In this document: positions 554 through 7,538 of the stretch, piece by piece | How positions within the stretch are numbered: position 1 is the stretch's first letter | How the letters are laid out: every line of letters begins with the position of its first letter | Origin: a virus | Taxonomy: Duplodnaviria; Heunggongvirae; Uroviricota; Caudoviricetes | IMG/VR virus record: IMGVR_UViG_2529292734_000008 | Span: 1-7,538 of that record | DNA length: 7,538 bases | Reading direction: 5' to 3' (one strand) | The notes under the pieces: model-generated | Database searches by the model: none | The model's input: only the letters and a program-made list of their open reading frames with translations | Told to the model about the DNA's origin: nothing | Made by a program: the position numbers and the translations under genes

Positions 554-904
554 TTACAACATTGTCAGTGCGTTAAGGCGGGATGTTTTTGGCTGACGCC
601 AGTCCAGCTTATCGAGGAGCATTGCCAGTTGCGAGCGGGTAATGGATATCTTACCGTCACGCACCGCAGGCCAGATAAACTGACCTTCCTCAAGGCGTTT
701 GGTGAACAGGCACAGACCATCAGCATCAGCCCACAGGATTTTAATCGTGTCTCCCCGTCGGCCACGGAAGATAAACAGGTGACCGGAGAAGGGGTTATCA
801 TCCAGCACATGCTGTATCTGCTCCCCCAGACCGTTGAAGGATTTACGCATATCAGTAACGCCGGCAACGAGCCAGATACGGGTACCTGATGGGAGTGAAA
901 TCAT
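554..904 (-). CDS. tnpB: IS66-family accessory protein TnpB (orf2)
   Basis: 116-aa ORF MISLPSGTRIWLVAGVTDMRKSFNGLGEQIQ...GHLFIFRGRRGDTIKILWADADGLCLFTKRLE, which matches the characteristic IS66 Orf2 sequence as I recall it. It sits between tnpA and tnpC. Confidence 0.85.
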   Translation of the reverse strand: MISLPSGTRIWLVAGVTDMRKSFNGLGEQIQHVLDDNPFSGHLFIFRGRRGDTIKILWADADGLCLFTKRLEEGQFIWPAVRDGKISITRSQLAMLLDKLDWRQPKTSRLNALTML

Positions 905-1338
905 CGTCCCTCCCGGTCAGCTCACGGATCAACACCGTGAGCAGCTCTGGTGAAGGATTTTCCAGCATCATTTTACCGTAATGGAATTCCACATGGCAGG
1001 AAGCTGCACAAGCAACTGATAATGCCTCCGGAGCAGGAGCATCTGTAGCACAGCGCGGGGGGTCGATAAGTTCCACTGGAACCAGAGTCGGAGAGGCCGG
1101 AAAAGATTGTGATACTGTAGGGCCTACAATAGTTGGAGGCATTCTACGAGAAAATACGTCCTTCTCTTTGCCAGAGGCGTAGCCATTTAAAAATCAGGTT
1201 GTTATCAACGCCATGTTCCCGGGCCAGTTGTGCAACATTGGCATTTGGTTTCGAAGCCAGTTCAACCATATGAAGTTTAAATTCATTAGAAAATATCCGG
1301 CGGGTTCCGGAGCGCCAGTCTGTAGGTTTATCCATCAA
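852..1338 (-). CDS. tnpA: IS66-family TnpA (orf1), present as two ORFs in different frames (1338-1144 and 1142-852); possibly frameshifted
   Basis: First ORF MMDKPTDWRSGTRRIFSNEFKLHMVELASKPNANVAQLAREHGVDNNLIFKWLRLWQREGRIFS (HTH-like) stops at TAG 1146-1144. Second ORF starts at ATG 1142 in another frame (MPPTIVGPTV...LLTVLIRELTGRDDDF...). The junction lies at the T4 run on the coding (minus) strand (A-run 1151-1154 on plus). Whether the native gene is continuous is from memory and unverified. Confidence 0.55.
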
Positions 1339-1449
1339 TAGAACTCCGTCTAATTTAGAAGGAGCTCTAATTTAGTCTGCAAGGAGCAGGTGTTACAGAC
1401 GGCATTGGCTTTACGCTTACGATTATTCATACTTCGTTTCTCCTCTTGA

Positions 1450-1839
1450 TCAGGCGGCTGCACCCGCCGTTTTCTCGTACTTACTGATAGTGATCTCGAC
1501 CTTCCCTTCCGGGATAACCGGTCCCCACTCCACCAGCATTCTTTTCACCTGACTGTCGTCTTCCCACACCCCCGCGTGGGTCAGGGCGTCAAACAGCGCC
1601 TTGTTATAGTTGTCCAGATCGCGGATCCTGTTATCCGGAGGAAACAACACGATCTCCACTGAAGCAGGTGCCGACGTTGGTTTCGGCAGACGACGTAACT
1701 GCTCAACTATTGCTGCGCACGCCGCGCTCTGGAATTTTCGCCCCGCCGCGCTTATCAGGCTCTTACCAGCAAACGCCCCTTTGTTGGGGTGTCGCCAGTA
1801 CGTGTTCACGCTGGGCGGAAAAGGCAGGATCAGCTTCAT
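1450..1839 (-). CDS. rusA: RusA-family Holliday junction resolvase (crossover junction endodeoxyribonuclease), lambdoid nin-region type
   Basis: 129-aa ORF with PPSVNTYWR...RIRDLDNYNKALFDALTHAGVWEDDSQV, resembling the RusA signature including the acidic RDLDN motif. Its ATG overlaps the stop of the upstream gene (ATGA). Confidence 0.85.
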   Translation of the reverse strand: MKLILPFPPSVNTYWRHPNKGAFAGKSLISAAGRKFQSAACAAIVEQLRRLPKPTSAPASVEIVLFPPDNRIRDLDNYNKALFDALTHAGVWEDDSQVKRMLVEWGPVIPEGKVEITISKYEKTAGAAA

Positions 1840-2162
1840 ACTTTCAGGCCCCTCTCATGTAACCAGTGGGTTGCACGCAGCCTTGCGTTTTCCTCACCGG
1901 CAAGCAGTGAGCGGATAATCCCGACCGCCTCGCTGTCGTCGTCCTTCACCGCGGTATGAAGCGTGATGCCCCGGGCCACGCCACGCTTTATCGTGATGAC
2001 GCCTTTTTTCTCCAGTGCGCGAAGATGCTCCACCGCTGCATTCACTGAACGGTATCCCAGCATGGTTGCCACCTCCTGATTGGTTGGCGGGAAGCCACGT
2101 TCTTTCTGATAAGAAATCAGCATATCCAGCACCTGCTGCTGGCATTGAGTTAACGTCGTCAT
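1836..2162 (-). CDS. LexA-like DNA-binding protein (LexA N-terminal winged-HTH domain only, no S24 peptidase domain)
   Basis: 108-aa ORF MTTLTQCQQQVLDMLISYQKERGFPPTNQEVATMLGYRSVNAAVEHLRALEKKGVITIKRGVARGITL aligns by eye with E. coli LexA residues 1-70 ([69 protein letters not shown]). The protein ends about 35 residues later with no Ser/Lys protease module. ATGA overlaps at both ends. Confidence 0.75.
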   Translation of the reverse strand: MTTLTQCQQQVLDMLISYQKERGFPPTNQEVATMLGYRSVNAAVEHLRALEKKGVITIKRGVARGITLHTAVKDDDSEAVGIIRSLLAGEENARLRATHWLHERGLKV

Positions 2163-2812
2163 GCCGCCATCTCCCTGACCAGTTTTTCTGCCTGCTGGCG
2201 AACCTGCGCCAGAAAGGCCTCACCACATGCCTCAAGTTCATCGCGCCCGATGTAGCTGATTGCCGGTCCCTTCCAGGTCTTGTCGAAAACAGCAATAGCA
2301 CCAGCGAAGAAAGCGCCTGTCGGCACCTGCTTCTCATCCTTCGGGATAAACCAGGCAGGCAGTTCAAAACCAATACGCCCGCGAATAAAAGCAATATGAT
2401 CTGCATCTTCCGGCCACCACACTTCGCTGGTGGCAGCTTTGATCAGGAAAACATAGCGCCCGCCTTTATCACGCATGGCACTGGCATGCTTCATGATGTA
2501 ACGCATGCCGGTGATGTATTGCCCCTCATGCTGGCTGGCGCGGCTGTATGGGGGATTACCAAAGGCAGCACCTTTAAGCTCCGCAAGGCGTTCTGACCAG
2601 TCATGCGCCAACGCGTTGTCTTCCGCCGTGTAATACGCAGCACATTTGGCGTTATCACCGTCAGTAAACAGATCCAGAACAAACGGGCCAAACAGAGTGT
2701 TAATTCCCCAGAAAATGTTGTCCGGCGTGCGCCACTGATCGCCCACTTCCTTCAGTTCATGGGCTGGTTTGTTCCGCAGTTCCGCCAGCGCCTGGCAATA
2801 TTTATTACTCAT
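2159..2812 (-). CDS. Phage N6-adenine DNA methyltransferase (Dam-like orphan MTase)
   Basis: ORF contains the motif-IV sequence FGNPPYS (NPPY) and an overall phage N-6-adenine MTase-like sequence. The likely start is ATG 2812-2810, overlapping the upstream stop as TAATG, with GGGGG just upstream. The ORF track extends to a GTG at 2845. Confidence 0.8.
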   Translation of the reverse strand: MSNKYCQALAELRNKPAHELKEVGDQWRTPDNIFWGINTLFGPFVLDLFTDGDNAKCAAYYTAEDNALAHDWSERLAELKGAAFGNPPYSRASQHEGQYITGMRYIMKHASAMRDKGGRYVFLIKAATSEVWWPEDADHIAFIRGRIGFELPAWFIPKDEKQVPTGAFFAGAIAVFDKTWKGPAISYIGRDELEACGEAFLAQVRQQAEKLVREMAA

Positions 2813-3306
2813 TAAGCCCCCACGTAATTCCCTGAGAGATACCACTCTTCACCTGATGCAGCCCGCTTACTGCTTTTCCGTAAACACAGTTCACGACGTG
2901 CCAGAAAATTGTTTCGTTCTGGCTGGGAGTGGCTTTCACGGAATGCCGCCATCCACACCGTTGCAGCACGACGGTATAAGCCCCTGGACTCCAGTTCTTC
3001 CGCCTGGCGGGTCAGGCACAAAATCACCCGCGGGTCGTTAGTGCCGACATAGAAATTGCGCACAGGTCTGGTTTCACGAACTGGTTGTGGTTCCGGATCC
3101 TGCGCTCTCTCAGTCAGGCGCGGGAAATGTCTGTGTGTATCTCCTTCACAACGGTGAGCCACACGCCCACTCTGACGTAACTTGCTTGCTGACTGCAGAA
3201 CGCGCTGCCGTGAGTAACCTGCAAAAGCATCCGCAATGTCTCCGGAAGTACAGCCCGGATGGGCTTCAATGAATTTCTGAACGTCATTCAAAAGACTCAT
3301 GCTCAC
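2812..3306 (-). CDS. Phage regulatory protein, winged-helix-like N-terminus with PerC-like C-terminal region (putative)
   Basis: 164-aa ORF translationally coupled at both ends (ATGA with the replication gene stop; TAATG with the MTase start). The C-terminal segment LESRGLYRRAATVWMAAF resembles the conserved core I recall for PerC/Pch-family activators; this assignment is from memory and is tentative. Confidence 0.55.
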   Translation of the reverse strand: MSMSLLNDVQKFIEAHPGCTSGDIADAFAGYSRQRVLQSASKLRQSGRVAHRCEGDTHRHFPRLTERAQDPEPQPVRETRPVRNFYVGTNDPRVILCLTRQAEELESRGLYRRAATVWMAAFRESHSQPERNNFLARRELCLRKSSKRAASGEEWYLSGNYVGA

Positions 3307-4244
3307 CCCCTGAATCCTGCCGGGATCTGGCTGTAGTCCACATTGTCGTAACTGGCTTTGAAGTACGGGTCTTCGCGTTTTTCTGTGTACGTGCTGACGG
3401 ACGGCGATAAGCGCAGGGAAAGCTCATCCCATTTTTCCCGCAGCTTCGACGGGCTGAGCACGTTACGGCACCAGAACGGATCGCGGCTGACGCGGCTGTA
3501 CATCTCGCAGATTTGTTTGTGAGTACGACCATCCTGCACACACATCAGGCGAATTTCGTTTGCCCAGGCTGTCCAGTTCGGTTCTTTGGGACGAACCACC
3601 TCGCCGTCACATTCGGCAGCCTGCTCGTACAGGGCGATGATTTTTTTCCAGAGCCACTGTGCGCAGGTCAAATCATCCTGCGTCCCCCACTGGCGCTTTT
3701 TAGGGCTGAATACAACCGCATCAGGATGGCGAGTTAAAAAATCCTGTTCAGCCGTCTGCGTGTCCGGTTGCGAAGCGTCCGGACGAGAAGGTTTTTTATC
3801 TGACGGATCATGTTTTGATTTTACTGACGGATCCCCGCCAGATTCTGACGGGTGAAAACCCGCTTTTTTGCCAGATTTCGACGCATCAAATTTTGACGGG
3901 TCAGATTTTGATGCGTCAGATTTTGACGGGTCAGAATCTGACAGTTGAGAAAATGCCGCTGCCTGAAGCTTCGCAACGTTAAGCTGATAAACATTCGACG
4001 CATTGCGGTTACCCTGGCGACGCGCCTTACGCGTTAACCAGCCTTCTGCTTCCAGCCGTGCGATAGCCGTTCTGACGGTACTCATCCCCGCGCCAATCTG
4101 ACGGGCAATGGTTTCAATTGATGGCCAGCACACACCTTCGTCATTACTGAAATCAGCCAGGCGGGCCATAATTGCCACGCTGGATAACTTCATGCCTGAT
4201 GCAGCGCAACCATCCCATACATAGCCGGTTAATTTAGTGCTCAT
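3303..4244 (-). CDS. Phage replication initiation protein (lambda O-like function): N-terminal HTH DNA-binding domain, low-complexity linker, C-terminal domain
   Basis: 313-aa ORF. The N-terminus ([70 protein letters not shown]) is typical of phage replication-initiator HTH domains. The central linker SDSDPSKSDASKSDPSKFDASKS is encoded by tandem DNA repeats. SD GAGGT lies 5 nt upstream of the ATG. Confidence 0.8.
   Translation of the reverse strand: MSTKLTGYVWDGCAASGMKLSSVAIMARLADFSNDEGVCWPSIETIARQIGAGMSTVRTAIARLEAEGWLTRKARRQGNRNASNVYQLNVAKLQAAAFSQLSDSDPSKSDASKSDPSKFDASKSGKKAGFHPSESGGDPSVKSKHDPSDKKPSRPDASQPDTQTAEQDFLTRHPDAVVFSPKKRQWGTQDDLTCAQWLWKKIIALYEQAAECDGEVVRPKEPNWTAWANEIRLMCVQDGRTHKQICEMYSRVSRDPFWCRNVLSPSKLREKWDELSLRLSPSVSTYTEKREDPYFKASYDNVDYSQIPAGFRG
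3798..3950. repeat. Putative replication origin: about 8 iterons with 10-bp core TGAYGSRTCA inside the replication-initiator gene
   Basis: Core copies at about 3801, 3825, 3846, 3880, 3895, 3910, 3925 and 3940, the last four at exact 15-bp spacing (GATTT-TGACGGGTCA). Flanking T-rich tracts at 3791-3797 and 3864-3869. The position matches the lambda arrangement where ori lies within the O gene linker. Confidence 0.6.
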
Positions 4245-4592
4245 GACCGACCTCTATTTCCCTGAATTTACGACGAAACTGTTCGAGCGGACTGAAGCAT
4301 TCATGCTCATAACCTTCGCGGAGGTAGATAACCCGTTGTGTTTCCGGCTCCCAACGAATGACTCTGACGGGCACTCCGTAGTGATCTTTGAACCAGCGGT
4401 TAACTTGTCGCAAAGGACTGTCTCCTTCTGCCGGTTGAAATCACCCACAGCCCACTCTGCAAAGCTGTGGGTTACAATTTCCCTGTCACCTGGTACATTC
4501 ACTGCATAGCAATATTCCACCTTCGCTTTTCCACCCGGAACAGGAAGCGCAATCAGTTGCGAGCGACGGTAGTGTGTTGTTAAACTGTTCAT
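4234..4592 (-). CDS. Hypothetical phage protein, apparently frameshifted (N-terminal part in one frame, protein-like C-terminal part in another)
   Basis: The track ORF 4592-4254 starts [51 protein letters not shown] and then degenerates into a Ser/Thr-rich tail. From 4440 down to TAA 4236-4234 a second frame encodes [68 protein letters not shown]. The start overlaps the upstream gene stop as ATGA. Confidence 0.5.
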
Positions 4593-4957
4593 GCGTTAGT
4601 TTCTCCACAGTCACGACACGCCACGGCGCCCGGAGCTGCACACTCGCGGGCGTCATTACTTTCTGAAATGCAAAAAATTTTGTAGACCAGTGCTGCATGC
4701 TCCTGCAGCTTCGAAATTGAGAGGTAGAGCTCGTCATTAATTGCTGTCTTCTCATGCGGTTCCACTACACCGTCTTCGATTGCTGAACGAATCTGTTTTG
4801 AATAACTGCCGATCTGTTCAATGACTTCCAGCAGACGCTGGTTAATATCGGCGTTGTCCACATCCTCGACGTCAGGAAGAGACACAAAGACGCCATTTGC
4901 AGACTGCGCCACAGCATCAGCAATGAAGTGAGTTCCACCAGCACGTTGCAAAATCAT
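4589..4957 (-). CDS. Hypothetical phage early protein (122 aa, predicted helical)
   Basis: ORF with ATG at 4957. Its stop overlaps the downstream gene start (ATGA at 4592-4589). It lies between the cII-like and replication genes in the same operon. No family recognised. Confidence 0.55.
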
Positions 4958-4978
4958 TGCCCATCCCAGCGGGAAAAT

Positions 4979-5185
4979 CTAATCGCCATCGGCACGAAGG
5001 CGGTTAAATAATGCGTTCTCTGTTACATCCAGCCAGTCAGCAGCTTCAGCGTAACCCCCCGGCAACGCTGCGATAGTTTTTCTGACAGCTTTCACGTACC
5101 ACTCAGGCTGTTTGTCTACTTTCCAGTGATGCTTACCCACGGTTAGCCTCATCGTTCTGTGGTTTCTGTTAATCGATTTATCCAT
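4979..5185 (-). CDS. CII-like / YdaT-like HTH regulatory protein (putative), ending at an amber codon
   Basis: HTH-like segment GYAEAADWLDVTENALFNRLR at the C-terminus, in the position of lambda cII (immediately downstream of cro). The start is uncertain: ATG 5185 overlaps the cro stop, with alternatives at 5197 and 5152; none has a strong SD. The ORF ends at TAG 4981-4979. Confidence 0.45.
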   Translation of the reverse strand: MDKSINRNHRTMRLTVGKHHWKVDKQPEWYVKAVRKTIAALPGGYAEAADWLDVTENALFNRLRADGD

Positions 5186-5378
5186 TAGATTTTTCATAAA
5201 GCTCAGGTTTAAATGGCAACCGTCCGCAAGTTCTATATGCAGCTTCTGCTGCACGTCCTTTTGGAATTAACTGGCCCGGACGGTTTCGCCACTGATAAAC
5301 GGCTTCAGTTGTTATGCCGAAAAAAGCAGCAACTTTCTCAATACTGCCGAAGTAGCTTTCGATATCGTCAGTTGTCAT
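5178..5378 (-). CDS. Cro-like transcriptional regulator (small HTH protein)
   Basis: 66-aa ORF MTTDDIESYFGSIEKVAAFFGITTEAVYQWRNRPGQLIPKGRAAEAAYRTCGRLPF with an HTH motif (VAAFFGITTEAVYQWR). SD GGAGGG lies just upstream of ATG 5378. It is transcribed divergently from the repressor gene. Confidence 0.7.
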   Translation of the reverse strand: MTTDDIESYFGSIEKVAAFFGITTEAVYQWRNRPGQLIPKGRAAEAAYRTCGRLPFKPELYEKSNG

Positions 5379-5388
5379 ACGCCCTCCA

Positions 5389-5455
5389 AACTAAGTTTTA
5401 TTAGATGCTAATTACAAATCTATCTTTGGTCAATAAAAACTAAGATTACTTAGTA
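5389..5455. promoter_or_regulatory. Divergent immunity control region (OR-like): two 14-bp inverted-repeat operator candidates and a PR-like promoter for cro
   Basis: CTAAGTTTTATTAG (5391-5404) and CTAAGATTACTTAG (5440-5453; perfect 5-bp arms CTAAG/CTTAG). On the minus strand, -35 TTGACC (5433-5428), a 17-bp spacer and -10 TAGCAT (5410-5405) precede the cro ATG. The first operator overlaps the -10/+1 region. Confidence 0.55.
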
Positions 5456-5475
5456 ATTAAAGAAATGGTGCTCCT

Positions 5476-5985
5476 ATGGAAACGGTTGGTCAGCGTATAA
5501 AAGCTCTGAGAAGAGTTACCAGAACGTCCCAGAAAGAATTGGGTAAATTTTGTGGAGTAAGCGACGTTGCTGTGGGGTACTGGGAGAAAGACATCAATAC
5601 CCCTGGTGGGGAGGCACTTTCGAAATTAGCGAAGTTCTTCAATACGTCAATAGATTACATTCTTTATGGTGCTGAGTTTGAAGGCAAACTCGTCACAAAC
5701 ATGCGCAGAGTTCCTGTAATATCGTGGGTTCAGGCTGGGCAGTTTACTGAGTGCAGGGCAGCAGAAGTGTTTAGTGAAGTGGACAAGTGGGTAGATACAT
5801 CATTAAAGATTGGTGATAACTCATTTGCATTAGAGGTTAAAGGTGACTCCATGACTAACCCTAATGGCCTCCCAACAATACCAGAAGGCGCAACAGTGAT
5901 TGTAGATCCAGATGCAGAACCTCGTCATGGAAAAATAGTCATCGCTCGACTTGATGGAACAAACGAAGCTACAGTAAAAAATTAG
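5476..5985 (+). CDS. CI-type prophage repressor (XRE HTH + LexA-like S24 peptidase domain), truncated by a frameshift; remaining C-terminal codons continue in another frame to 6101
   Basis: N-terminal HTH (QKELGKFCGVSDVAVGYWEKD) and S24 catalytic Ser motif GDSM. The ORF ends ...ARLDGTNEATVKN*. The adjacent frame encodes KKLVIDGPQKFLVPLNPRYPNIPINGNCLIIGVVKGVQYEL* (to TAA 6099-6101), which matches the lambda CI C-terminus pattern [35 protein letters not shown]. The break is in the A6 run 5976-5981. Confidence 0.85.
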   Translation: METVGQRIKALRRVTRTSQKELGKFCGVSDVAVGYWEKDINTPGGEALSKLAKFFNTSIDYILYGAEFEGKLVTNMRRVPVISWVQAGQFTECRAAEVFSEVDKWVDTSLKIGDNSFALEVKGDSMTNPNGLPTIPEGATVIVDPDAEPRHGKIVIARLDGTNEATVKN

Positions 5986-6115
5986 TCATCGATGGCCCTC
6001 AAAAGTTTTTAGTGCCATTAAATCCTCGGTATCCCAACATCCCTATCAATGGTAATTGCCTTATCATTGGTGTAGTCAAAGGAGTTCAATACGAACTCTA
6101 AGACCTCTCTTCTCT

Positions 6116-6183
6116 AACTAAGGCACCGAACTAAGAAAAGTTTGGTGTTTTCTCTTGCCATAATAACTAAGTTAAGTTAGATT
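6116..6183 (+). promoter_or_regulatory. OL/PL-like element: repeated AACTAAG half-sites, a 14-bp operator-like site and a sigma70-like promoter pointing rightward
   Basis: AACTAAG at 6116-6122, 6129-6135 and 6165-6171. CTAAGTTAAGTTAG at 6167-6180 matches the OR motif. -35 TTGCCA (6155-6160), 17-bp spacer, -10 TAGATT (6178-6183). Confidence 0.45.
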
Positions 6184-6261
6184 TTATGTCAAAGATAACG
6201 AACAGGCAGGACGCCCACGAAGTAGCCGCCTGGGGCATATGAAGTCCAGGATGATTCGTTA

Positions 6262-6290
6262 GCAACAAAAAAGCGCCCTACAGGACGCTT
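6262..6290 (-). terminator. Intrinsic terminator-like hairpin with U-tract, minus-strand sense
   Basis: Minus-strand RNA would read AAGCGUCC-UGUA-GGGCGCUU followed by UUUUUUGUUG (stem 6271-6290, A-run 6267-6272 on plus). On the plus strand the same hairpin has a C-A mismatch and no downstream U-tract. Confidence 0.5.
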
Positions 6291-6291
6291 A

Positions 6292-6303
6292 GCTCTTTAA
6301 CAA
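6292..6303 (+). promoter_or_regulatory. boxA-like antitermination element (12/12 match to the rrn-type boxA core GCTCTTTAACAA)
   Basis: GCTCTTTAACAA at 6292-6303, immediately after a hairpin and about 45 nt upstream of the ATG of the first plus-strand gene downstream of the PL-like promoter. A weak AU-rich hairpin CAAGTAACTGATAACTTG follows at 6319-6336. Confidence 0.45.
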
Positions 6304-6348
6304 TCTGGTCCCCATCAACAAGTAACTGATAACTTGAGGAGATGTGAA

Positions 6349-6555
6349 ATGCACAAAACAGAACCCAAAATCGTCGCGCCTGGCTACACAGATGAGGAAA
6401 TTTATGAGTGGATGACAAAGAAGCTGGCAGCTATAAACCAGCTTCGTGAAGTGCTGTCTTATCGACAGGAAACAATAGACTCCTTAAAAAAACTGGATCA
6501 GGAAATCACGGTTTTATCACAGGATGTTACTTTAGATATTGTGCAGACAAATTAG
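6349..6555 (+). CDS. Hypothetical small protein (68 aa), first gene of the rightward PL-like transcript; AT-rich accessory gene
   Basis: ATG at 6349 preceded by a strong SD GAGGAG (6336-6341). The track ORF begins at an earlier in-frame ATG at 6334. The translation MHKTEPKIVAPGYTDEEIYEWMTKKLAAINQLREVLSYRQETIDSLKKLDQEITVLSQDVTLDIVQTN is predicted helical and acidic. No family recognised. Confidence 0.6.
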   Translation: MHKTEPKIVAPGYTDEEIYEWMTKKLAAINQLREVLSYRQETIDSLKKLDQEITVLSQDVTLDIVQTN

Positions 6556-6961
6556 GATCCCATTCATTTTCGTCAAAATCATCAAAGTGATGAATTTGTG
6601 ATCTCCAGTCTCGATAATCTAAAAATTTCTGGGCGGTTACGCTTATTTTATCAAGTGTGAGTTCATCCTGAATTGAAAGAAGAAGTTCATCAAATTTCAT
6701 CTCATTAATCTGTTTTGGCATCCAGTGATGCTTCATCAGAATAAGGTGAACCAGAGCCTTTTTCCCATTCAACTGATTATAGGGAGTGCCGAATTTCTTC
6801 CGGTGCTCATGTAAGACAAGGTCCAAAAGAGTAAGTAATGTTGCCCTTGATTCAACTTTGCTTATTTCGACTGATGACACTACCCCACTGATTTCAATGC
6901 CCCGATACTTTCCAACATTTTCACAGTGGGATTTGTACAGCGTATAGATATTACCGGACAT
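6527..6961 (-). CDS. Hypothetical protein (144 aa), moron-like accessory gene transcribed convergently to the PL-like operon
   Basis: ORF with SD AAGGA (revcomp of plus 6962-6975) upstream of ATG 6961. The region looks AT-rich compared with the flanking phage backbone. Its 3' end overlaps the 68-aa gene by 29 bp. No family recognised. Confidence 0.7.
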   Translation of the reverse strand: MSGNIYTLYKSHCENVGKYRGIEISGVVSSVEISKVESRATLLTLLDLVLHEHRKKFGTPYNQLNGKKALVHLILMKHHWMPKQINEMKFDELLLSIQDELTLDKISVTAQKFLDYRDWRSQIHHFDDFDENEWDPNLSAQYLK

Positions 6962-6976
6962 TTCTTTTCCTTTTGC

Positions 6977-7028
6977 GTTGTTGGGGATAACCAGATTAAC
7001 CGAATCCTTGTTGTTGGGGAATAACCAG
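6977..7028. repeat. Two 18-19 bp direct repeats GTTGTTGGGGA(A)TAACCAG separated by about 15 bp, in the upstream region of the 144-aa gene
   Basis: Copy 1 at 6977-6994 and copy 2 at 7010-7028, nearly identical, located 16-67 bp upstream of the minus-strand ATG at 6961. Confidence 0.5.
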
Positions 7029-7245
7029 GTCCACCTCGCCTGATGTGGCTAAAAGCAGGCACATAACAGCTAAGTATTTTCAACCAGAGAGAATCCTTAG
7101 CGTTGTGGTGAATGCGGCTCAGCGCACGCGGGTTAAGGTTGAGGCTGACAGTCGACCTTCTGTGGATACCCACCCGCCTGGTGTGCAACCTTCGCCAGGC
7201 ACCGGGAGGCACCCGGCACCACAACTTTATGCTGTGTGTAGTCTT

Positions 7246-7292
7246 GGCGGTACCAGCTTGTACCCTTGCTTCCGGCTGGTACCGTCCTTTTT
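7246..7292 (+). terminator. Rho-independent terminator-like hairpin (10-bp perfect stem CGGTACCAGC/GCTGGTACCG, 17-nt loop, T5 tract)
   Basis: Stem 7248-7257 pairs with 7275-7284, followed by TTTTT at 7288-7292 on the plus strand. Confidence 0.6.
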
Positions 7293-7297
7293 ACAAA

Positions 7298-7379
7298 ACA
7301 GAGAAGAGCATCACCGGACGACGGGCTCATAACCCAATCCATCCGGGCGGCAGTCACCGCAGGTGTTCTTCTCTGTTTT
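7298..7379 (+). other. Long-range helix (about 15 bp including G-U pairs) enclosing about 49 nt, followed by a UUU run; structured leader element
   Basis: 7298-7312 pairs with 7362-7376 (ACAGAGAAGAGCATC / GGTGTTCTTCTCTGT). It lies about 50 nt upstream of the next gene's ATG. Confidence 0.35.
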
Positions 7380-7429
7380 GTGGAGAAACTAACCGACCTT
7401 GCAGGGTCGATATGATGAGGAGCAGCAAA

Positions 7430-7538
7430 ATGGCTAGCGAACGCAGTACTGATGTGCAGGCATTTATCGGGGAGCTGGACGGCGGCGTATTTGAAACCAA
7501 AATCGGCGCAGTTCTCAGTGAAGTCGCTTCCGGTGTGA
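7430..7538 (+). CDS. Hypothetical protein, 5' partial view (continues beyond window end)
   Basis: ATG 7430 with SD GAGGAG (7417-7422) 8 nt upstream. Translation MASERSTDVQAFIGELDGGVFETKIGAVLSEVASGV... is open to the window end. No family recognised. Confidence 0.55.
   Translation, partial: MASERSTDVQAFIGELDGGVFETKIGAVLSEVASGV

Follow-up and report, generated by a model that had tools for sequence, protein, structure and literature searches.

A probable OL/PL region of the P22 type, followed by a conserved leader RNA element, in an SfV/CPS-53-type lambdoid prophage of E. coli

In bacteriophage lambda, the OL region leads to the recombination, xis and int genes. It contains three adjacent 17-bp operators, with OL2 lying over the -35 element; the rexA and rexB genes are located between cI and OL, nutL and the N protein follow, and OL and OR are engaged in DNA looping. 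In P22, the sequence of which was read directly in this work and scored with its own consensus, OL/PL follows the repressor gene directly and on the same strand, with no rex genes in between. The P22 operators are 18 bp long (7-4-7) with a TAAG/CTTA core, OL1 is placed in the spacer and the -10 element of PL (TTGACC-17-TAAATT), and the phage possesses gene 24, an analogue of N, and a boxB after boxA. In bacteriophage HK022, which has no N protein, a structured RNA of about 70 nt, putL, is located immediately downstream of PL (PMC9378689), and its apical loop is formed by an AGGAU motif (PMC9378689, supplement).

The DNA considered here, referred to below as the window, is the whole analysed stretch of 7538 bp. 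Its ORF map and database matches identify a lambdoid prophage of the SfV/SfIV/CPS-53 (yfd) type, in which rusA, a small LexA-like gene, dam, yfdN, an O-like replication gene, ymfL and cro occupy the minus strand, and cI, a 68-aa gene and yfdP the plus strand. The closest match is E. coli D6 (99.9% across 1421-7538); with that genome as the reference, the window contains three substitutions and one deletion. The plus strand of E. coli D6 leads from the 68-aa gene through yfdP-Q-R-T to an integrase gene beside tRNA-Arg. The orientation of the window is flipped relative to the lambda map, so that cI and the expected PL both point rightward. Judging from sequence comparison, the region 6116-6183 is very probably the OL/PL of a P22-like immunity region in this SfV/CPS-53-type lambdoid E. 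coli prophage. The features of the immunity region are the following (operator scores are given out of 14 positions):

5378-5178, minus strand: cro
5389-5455: OR region, with OR1 at 5389-5406 (12/14), candidate OR2 at 5413-5430 (10/14) and OR3 at 5438-5455 (14/14)
5405-5433, minus strand: candidate PR driving cro, TTGACC-17-TAGCAT
5476-6100, plus strand: cI repressor gene, with an HTH_3 N-terminal domain and a Peptidase_S24 C-terminal domain
6116-6122, plus strand: distal AACTAAG half-site, which may belong to a site at 6116-6133 (11/14) overlapping OL2
6129-6146: OL2, AACTAAG-AAAA-GTTTGGT (11/14), at about -62 to -45, with 36 bp between its centre and that of OL1
6155-6160, plus strand: PL -35 element, TTGCCA (TTGACC or TTGACA in relatives)
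6165-6182: OL1, AACTAAG-TTAA-GTTAGAT (12/14), filling the PL spacer and overlapping the -10 element; identical in LLS, mEp460 and most relatives
6178-6183, plus strand: PL -10 element, TAGATT

The arrangement described for P22 recurs in the window in considerable detail. The repressor gene is again followed directly by OL/PL on the same strand without intervening rex genes, the operators have the same 18-bp (7-4-7) format and TAAG/CTTA core, and in both phages OL1 occupies the spacer and the -10 element, starting 10 bp after the start of the -35 element. PL in both has a 17-bp spacer and takes its -10 element from the right half of the operator. From the beginning of the next operator to that of the -35 element the distance is 25 bp in P22 and 26 bp in the window; this upstream operator is about 35 bp away from OL1 in both cases, and a third, weaker site is present further upstream. 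Adjacent OR centres are 23/25 bp apart in P22, the corresponding values for the window being 24/25 bp. The N-terminal domain of the repressor is homologous to C2, matching the P22 C2 structures PDB 1adr, 2r1j and 3jxb (E ~5e-10, residues 3-65), and Cro is assigned to the Pfam family P22_Cro. Both phages also carry an opposite-strand gene in the early-left region, sieB in P22 and an ECs1072-family gene in the window.

The differences from P22 are of several kinds. The operator half-site is AACTAAG in the window and ATTTAAG in P22, so the immunity specificity is expected to differ and the window phage to be heteroimmune to P22. Gene 24 and the boxB after boxA are both absent, while a 66-nt leader element of the window has in P22 just a short look-alike stretch, CAGGACGC..GTAGCC. 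Unlike the C2-like N-terminal domain, the C-terminal domain of the repressor has lambda cI as its nearest solved structures (E 7e-28). Taken together, the likeness in register, operators and repressor suggests that the window OL/PL is a heteroimmune member of the P22-type design. The preliminary description had proposed an OL-like operator cluster with a rightward promoter downstream of cI that mirrors lambda OL/PL. The identity of the region as OL/PL is borne out, so far as sequence can tell, by its position and orientation, by the operators shared with OR, by conservation across genera and by the mosaic joint described below, and lambda too has a repressor-controlled early promoter at the immunity edge that shares its operator consensus with OR and leads to xis/int. 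The layout, however, is closer to that of P22 than to that of lambda.

The operators themselves stand out from the background. AACTAAG occurs five times in the window against 0.68 copies expected, and none of 200 shuffles reached five. Three copies are on the plus strand at 6116-6122, 6129-6135 and 6165-6171, and the others are found only at 5389 and 5438, between cro and cI; the heptamer is thus 7-fold enriched and restricted to two 70-bp regions. The 14-mer CTAAGTTAAGTTAG at 6167-6180 is an imperfect palindrome (12/14 positions) and forms the core of the 18-bp site AACTAAG-N4-GTTAGAT at 6165-6182. The operator unit can be written as the 18-bp dyad WACTAAG-N4-CTTAGTW, which is perfect at 5438-5455 and is matched at 12 of the 14 positions at 5389-5406 and 6165-6182. 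When the window was searched with AACTAAG-N5-TTAGWT (at most one mismatch), a pattern written from the operator sites themselves, only these three sites were found, with 0.01 matches expected. Sites scoring 10-11/14 are frequent in shuffles (about 6.6 per window), so that it is clustering and conservation, and not the score, that speak for the sites at 6129-6146 and 6116-6133. LLS and mEp460 have a conserved OR region. Conservation does not extend to the half-site at 6116, which is present in the window, LLS and two Enterobacter loci only and absent from mEp460 and most relatives. The three half-sites and the full 14-bp site reported earlier are all present, but the statement that they overlap the promoter applies to the third half-site and the full site, which cover the spacer and the -10 element; the other two lie upstream of the -35 element, with OL2 ending 8 bp before it. 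The operators share the OR consensus, and OL1 covers the core promoter.

The promoter was earlier described as a good sigma70 match, TTGCCA-17-TAGATT. This sequence is indeed present at 6155-6183 on the plus strand and agrees with the consensus at 9 of 12 positions, its -35 hexamer departing from the TTGACC/TTGACA of the relatives at one or two positions. The match taken alone is nevertheless no better than chance, a promoter scan having returned 5 sites in 2.6 kb against 3.9 expected, and its weight comes from conservation. Since the promoter match and the operator scores of 10-11/14 are each at chance level, the case needs comparative evidence. The start of transcription is predicted at about 6190-6191 from the 7-nt rule.

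Such evidence is provided by a scan of cI homologues at 63-90% identity, one genome per species, to which phages LLS (77% DNA identity) and mEp460 were added; besides Escherichia, the homologues belong to Enterobacter, Kosakonia, Kluyvera, Serratia, Rahnella, Yersinia, Providencia and Proteus. In 17 of the 18 cI-homologue loci (63-100% identity, nine genera) the sequence TTGAC(C/A)-17-TAGATT is found 40-98 bp past the cI stop, and the 17-bp spacer is invariant; one Yersinia locus has TAGCCT as its -10 element. The spacer and the -10 element are occupied in these loci by CTAAGTTAAGTTAG or a close variant of it, with the distal operator 34-36 bp upstream of the proximal one, and the flanks on both sides of OL/PL are unalignable. 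The left half of OL2 and its AGTTTGG part are kept in Enterobacter, Kosakonia, Kluyvera, Serratia and Rahnella. The right half is degenerate (GTTTGG) in Enterobacteriaceae, and a full dyad is present at this place in Yersinia and Providencia. Five homologue loci of the Rouxiella type have a terminator after cI, and no OL/PL was found in them.

The second line of comparative evidence is a mosaic joint at the predicted start of the transcript. Phages of the same immunity (LLS and the two Enterobacter loci) lose homology to the window right after the -10 element, and the heteroimmune phages SfIV, SfV, SfII and ST64B gain homology from window position 6197 onward, which places the breakpoints of both groups within 6186-6197. 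With the joint located just past the -10 element, the conserved transcript would start a few bases after 6183. When 6197-6222 was used as an exact pattern, it was detected in more than 120 IMG/VR viral contigs behind at least seven upstream (immunity) types. Types A, B (SfIV), D and F carry a promoter of their own according to the promoter scan, with the -10 element ending 13-21 nt before the joint; at the chosen threshold the scan called none in types C, E, G or Xenorhabdus L152, and by eye TTGCAC-17-TATCTT is seen in type G and TTGACT-17-TAAAAC in Xenorhabdus L152. In types B (SfIV), D3, F and G, 7-mers of the promoter stretch recur about 750-1040 bp upstream, at the OR of the same phage. 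SfIV has a terminator after cI and then TTGACA-16-CATAAT under TGTACC half-sites, which are also present between its cro and cI. Prophages of Photorhabdus and Xenorhabdus, with repressors 41-46% identical, have P22-type operators and a promoter, TTGACA-17-TAAATT, that ends 8 nt before a downstream element of the 6197-6262 type. The mosaic joint suggests that every immunity region supplies an operator-covered promoter of its own at the same point.

The features found to the right of PL are the following:

6197-6262, plus strand: structured leader RNA element, about +7 to +72 of the predicted PL transcript
6271-6290, minus strand: hairpin with a U6 run, upstream of boxA and the only hairpin near it
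6292-6303, plus strand: boxA, GCTCTTTAACAA, an exact rrn-type consensus (0.0009 exact matches expected)
6349-6555, plus strand: first PL gene (68 aa), preceded by the ribosome-binding site GAGGAG; acidic product, phrog_1744 (unknown function)
6527-6961, minus strand: convergent ECs1072-family gene (moron), inside the early-left region
7072-7295, plus strand: STnc100-like/sRNA-17-like RNA with a strong terminator at 7251-7295, upstream of yfdP
7430-7538, plus strand: start of yfdP, the first of the early-left genes yfdP-Q-R-T...int in the intact relative

What follows the joint is a self-contained element, bounded on its other side by a second mosaic joint at about 6262. It folds into a closing helix enclosing two hairpins. 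Among 21 distinct sequences 96.7% of the cells are paired, compared with 20-38% when the partner columns are slid, and compensatory changes are observed in five pairs: one hairpin accounts for four of them (out of its five), and the remaining one is a closing-helix pair that occurs as three pair types. The element moves as a cassette between immunity types, at least seven of which have it, stands ahead of at least five unrelated first genes (the gene after the leader differs among relatives) and is found in prophages of Escherichia, Shigella, Kluyvera, Kosakonia, Yersinia, Photorhabdus and Xenorhabdus. In 6100-6400 no Rfam family was matched with a cutoff as loose as E<=10; a put model is missing from Rfam, and its silence is therefore uninformative about put.

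The position of the element invites comparison with HK022 put, and the two have in common CGAAC.GG towards the 5' end and AGGAUGA towards the 3' end. Homology between them was nevertheless rejected, as a covariance model of the leader misses putL and putR (E<=10, filters off), blastn gives no match and the role of AGGAU differs, this motif being the apical loop in HK022 putL and the 3' side of a covarying stem in the window leader. The topology differs as well, and put is present in a second copy downstream of PR, whereas the search of the window PR operon found neither a second leader element nor a second boxA. We therefore keep the likeness to put as a functional analogy only.

The boxA is conserved in the related leaders L129 and L130, with a near-match in L025, a third lineage. 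An MFE fold of 6190-6350 contains no boxB hairpin directly 3' of boxA, and boxA itself lies in a stem. The exact GCTCTTTAACAA and the hairpin upstream of it recall the boxB-boxA order of the rrn leader. Unlike in rrn, the boxA of the window is part of a phage early transcript, and the upstream hairpin, with a C-A mismatch in its plus-strand form and a U-tract that is poor there, more probably serves as a terminator on the minus strand; as its sequence suggests, it probably terminates the leftward transcripts of the convergent ECs1072-family gene. An N-like first gene was not found, the 68-aa phrog_1744 product having 2 Arg against 12 Asp+Glu.

The preliminary description had also predicted a repressor-controlled early operon to the right of PL. 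Its plausibility stems from the same-strand gene order up to int in E. coli D6, but this is not a simple operon: the convergent gene, overlapping the 68-aa gene by 29 bp (6527-6555), an untranslated stretch of 874 nt and the strong terminator at 7251-7295 all stand before yfdP. The untranslated stretch and the terminator make some processive antitermination likely. That the leader element and/or boxA supply it is our best guess, made with modest confidence. The more specific proposal, in which the leader element and the rrn-type boxA would constitute a cis-acting RNA module making the polymerase termination-resistant without an N-like protein, as an analogue and not a homologue of HK022 put, is a tentative one that we consider rather doubtful at present.

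Several other observations concern this part of the window. PADLOC and Pfam returned no match for either the 68-aa or the ECs1072-family protein, and NCBIfam supplied a family name only. Downstream of the ECs1072-family gene, and within the 68-aa gene, lies a second minus-strand terminator-like hairpin (6420-6445). Between the STnc100-like RNA and the beginning of the convergent gene, GTTGTTGGGGA(A)TAACCAG is directly repeated (6977-6994 and 7010-7028), and one of these two neighbours may be regulated through the repeat. The RNA at 7072-7295 matches STnc100 (RF02076) over the full model length with E 5e-07 and 43.4 bits, which is below the gathering score of 47, and is a probable diverged STnc100 homologue by this sequence match. 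In E. coli K1 RS218, sRNA-17 is a separate 193-nt RNA, the RACE-mapped 5' end of which corresponds to window position 7101 (PMC7719688), and the sRNA-17 primers of that study match the window at 16/16 and 29/32 positions. RefSeq places a frameshifted 'hypothetical protein' over this RNA in E. coli D6. Just upstream of it, at 7033-7060, we observed CCNCGCCTGATGTGGYTAAAAGCAGGC, which is also located at about 3470-3500 of L003 and which directly follows PL in phage LLS and in two Enterobacter loci. The occurrence of CCNCGCCTGATGTGGYTAAAAGCAGGC right after PL elsewhere suggests that the STnc100-like module is an alternative PL leader, and that the window has both modules in series.

Three other explanations of the region have to be considered. 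The one that survives best accepts PL as real but takes its main product to be a short non-coding leader RNA ending near 6271-6303, with the downstream genes served by promoters of their own. The leader element is indeed a covarying module joined to at least five unrelated first genes, a hairpin and then CUCUUU follow 80-110 nt past the predicted start, and the STnc100/sRNA-17 homologue further to the right has been mapped elsewhere as a separate 193-nt RNA (PMC7719688). The hairpin, however, is mismatched on the plus strand and makes a far better terminator on the minus strand, it is directly followed by boxA, which is a read-through signal, other variants have a gene directly after the element and no hairpin, and the 68-aa gene with its strong ribosome-binding site follows at 6349. 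We regard a short leader as the main product of PL as unlikely.

A second explanation would leave the operators without a working promoter, as a distal looping partner for OR or as a roadblock ending the cI transcript. The C-terminal domain of the repressor is lambda-cI-like and lambda loops OL to OR; the -35 element is imperfect in the window; and no terminator was found in the window sequence between cI and PL, so that PRM transcripts may read through this gap (the frame-repaired cI would end at 6100, and the -35 element, on the same plus strand, starts at 6155). Operators alone, however, give no reason for the hexamers and the exact 17-bp spacer to be kept in nine genera, the joint is also the site of near-consensus promoters in heteroimmune phages (e.g., TTGACA-16-CATAAT in SfIV), and looping and promoter function are not exclusive. 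The absence of a working promoter thus appears very improbable. Finally, a chance cluster of an AT-rich heptamer beside a chance promoter-like match is hardly credible, for although promoter-like matches are as frequent in shuffles and weak operator-like sites are common there, AACTAAG is 7-fold enriched in just two 70-bp regions, the 18-bp pattern has an expectation of 0.01, and the layout is conserved across genera and matches the P22 register.

Under the OL/PL interpretation that we prefer, the sigma-70 promoter at 6155-6183 would start rightward transcripts at about 6190. A dimer of the C2/cI-type repressor would recognise the 18-bp dyads WACTAAG-N4-CTTAGTW and, when bound to OL1 (6165-6182) inside the spacer and the -10 element, would exclude RNA polymerase; it would also bind OL2 (6129-6146), probably cooperatively through its lambda-cI-like C-terminal domain, and the half-site at 6116 would be optional. 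Cro would use the same operators as the repressor. Upon SOS cleavage of the repressor PL would fire, and its transcript would contain, in this order, the folded 66-nt RNA, boxA, the 68-aa gene and, if read-through occurs, yfdP...xis/int.

Whether this control operates through the prophage's own repressor in the window copy is doubtful, since cI is truncated here. The A-run at 5975-5980 is A6 in the window and A7 in E. coli D6 and the phage relatives; this 1-nt deletion frameshifts cI, and the ORF stops at 5985 (residue 169). The frameshift lies in Lys codons that align with K192 of lambda cI, and it may be either a real inactivation or a homopolymer sequencing error. The cro gene is intact in the window copy. 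Compared with E. coli D6, the window has a G-to-A change at 4981; the resulting TAG stop (4979-4981) in ymfL, on the minus strand, splits this gene into ORFs 4589-4957 and 4979-5254. At the left end, fragments of an IS66-family element with apparent frameshifts occupy 1-1400 and abut rusA:

554-904, minus strand: TnpB-like ORF, IS66-family fragment
1144-1338, minus strand: TnpA-like ORF, IS66-family fragment

These fragments stand where E. coli D6 has the KilA-N, DUF968 and Q genes, and the junction is matched by none of the complete E. coli genomes searched, the coverage of the window by any one of which is at most 81%. The cI deletion, the ymfL stop and the IS66 fragments point to a decaying prophage, or to homopolymer sequencing error. 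In the O-like replication gene, a repetitive stretch at 3820-3960 encodes SDPSK-type peptide repeats; these may be iteron-like repeats of an origin. An Rfam match to mir-5880 at the same coordinates was discarded as spurious, the repetitive stretch being its source.

The OL/PL region of this prophage is an ordinary feature of a known type, and its only unusual neighbour is the conserved leader RNA. The operator consensus WACTAAG-N4-CTTAGTW and the position of PL are now available for an immunity group that is found in about 150 complete E. coli genomes and in phages such as mEp460, and they help in annotation, in immunity-group prediction and in reporter design, which is a modest gain. From a comparative point of view, the OL/PL layout of P22 is kept in exact register over nine genera while the operator sequence changes. 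The placement of PL at 6155-6183 means that the early-left transcript of lambdoid phages lacking N opens with a widely shared, covarying RNA and a consensus boxA, and with PL fixed in this way the read-through to xis/int in these N-less phages becomes directly testable.
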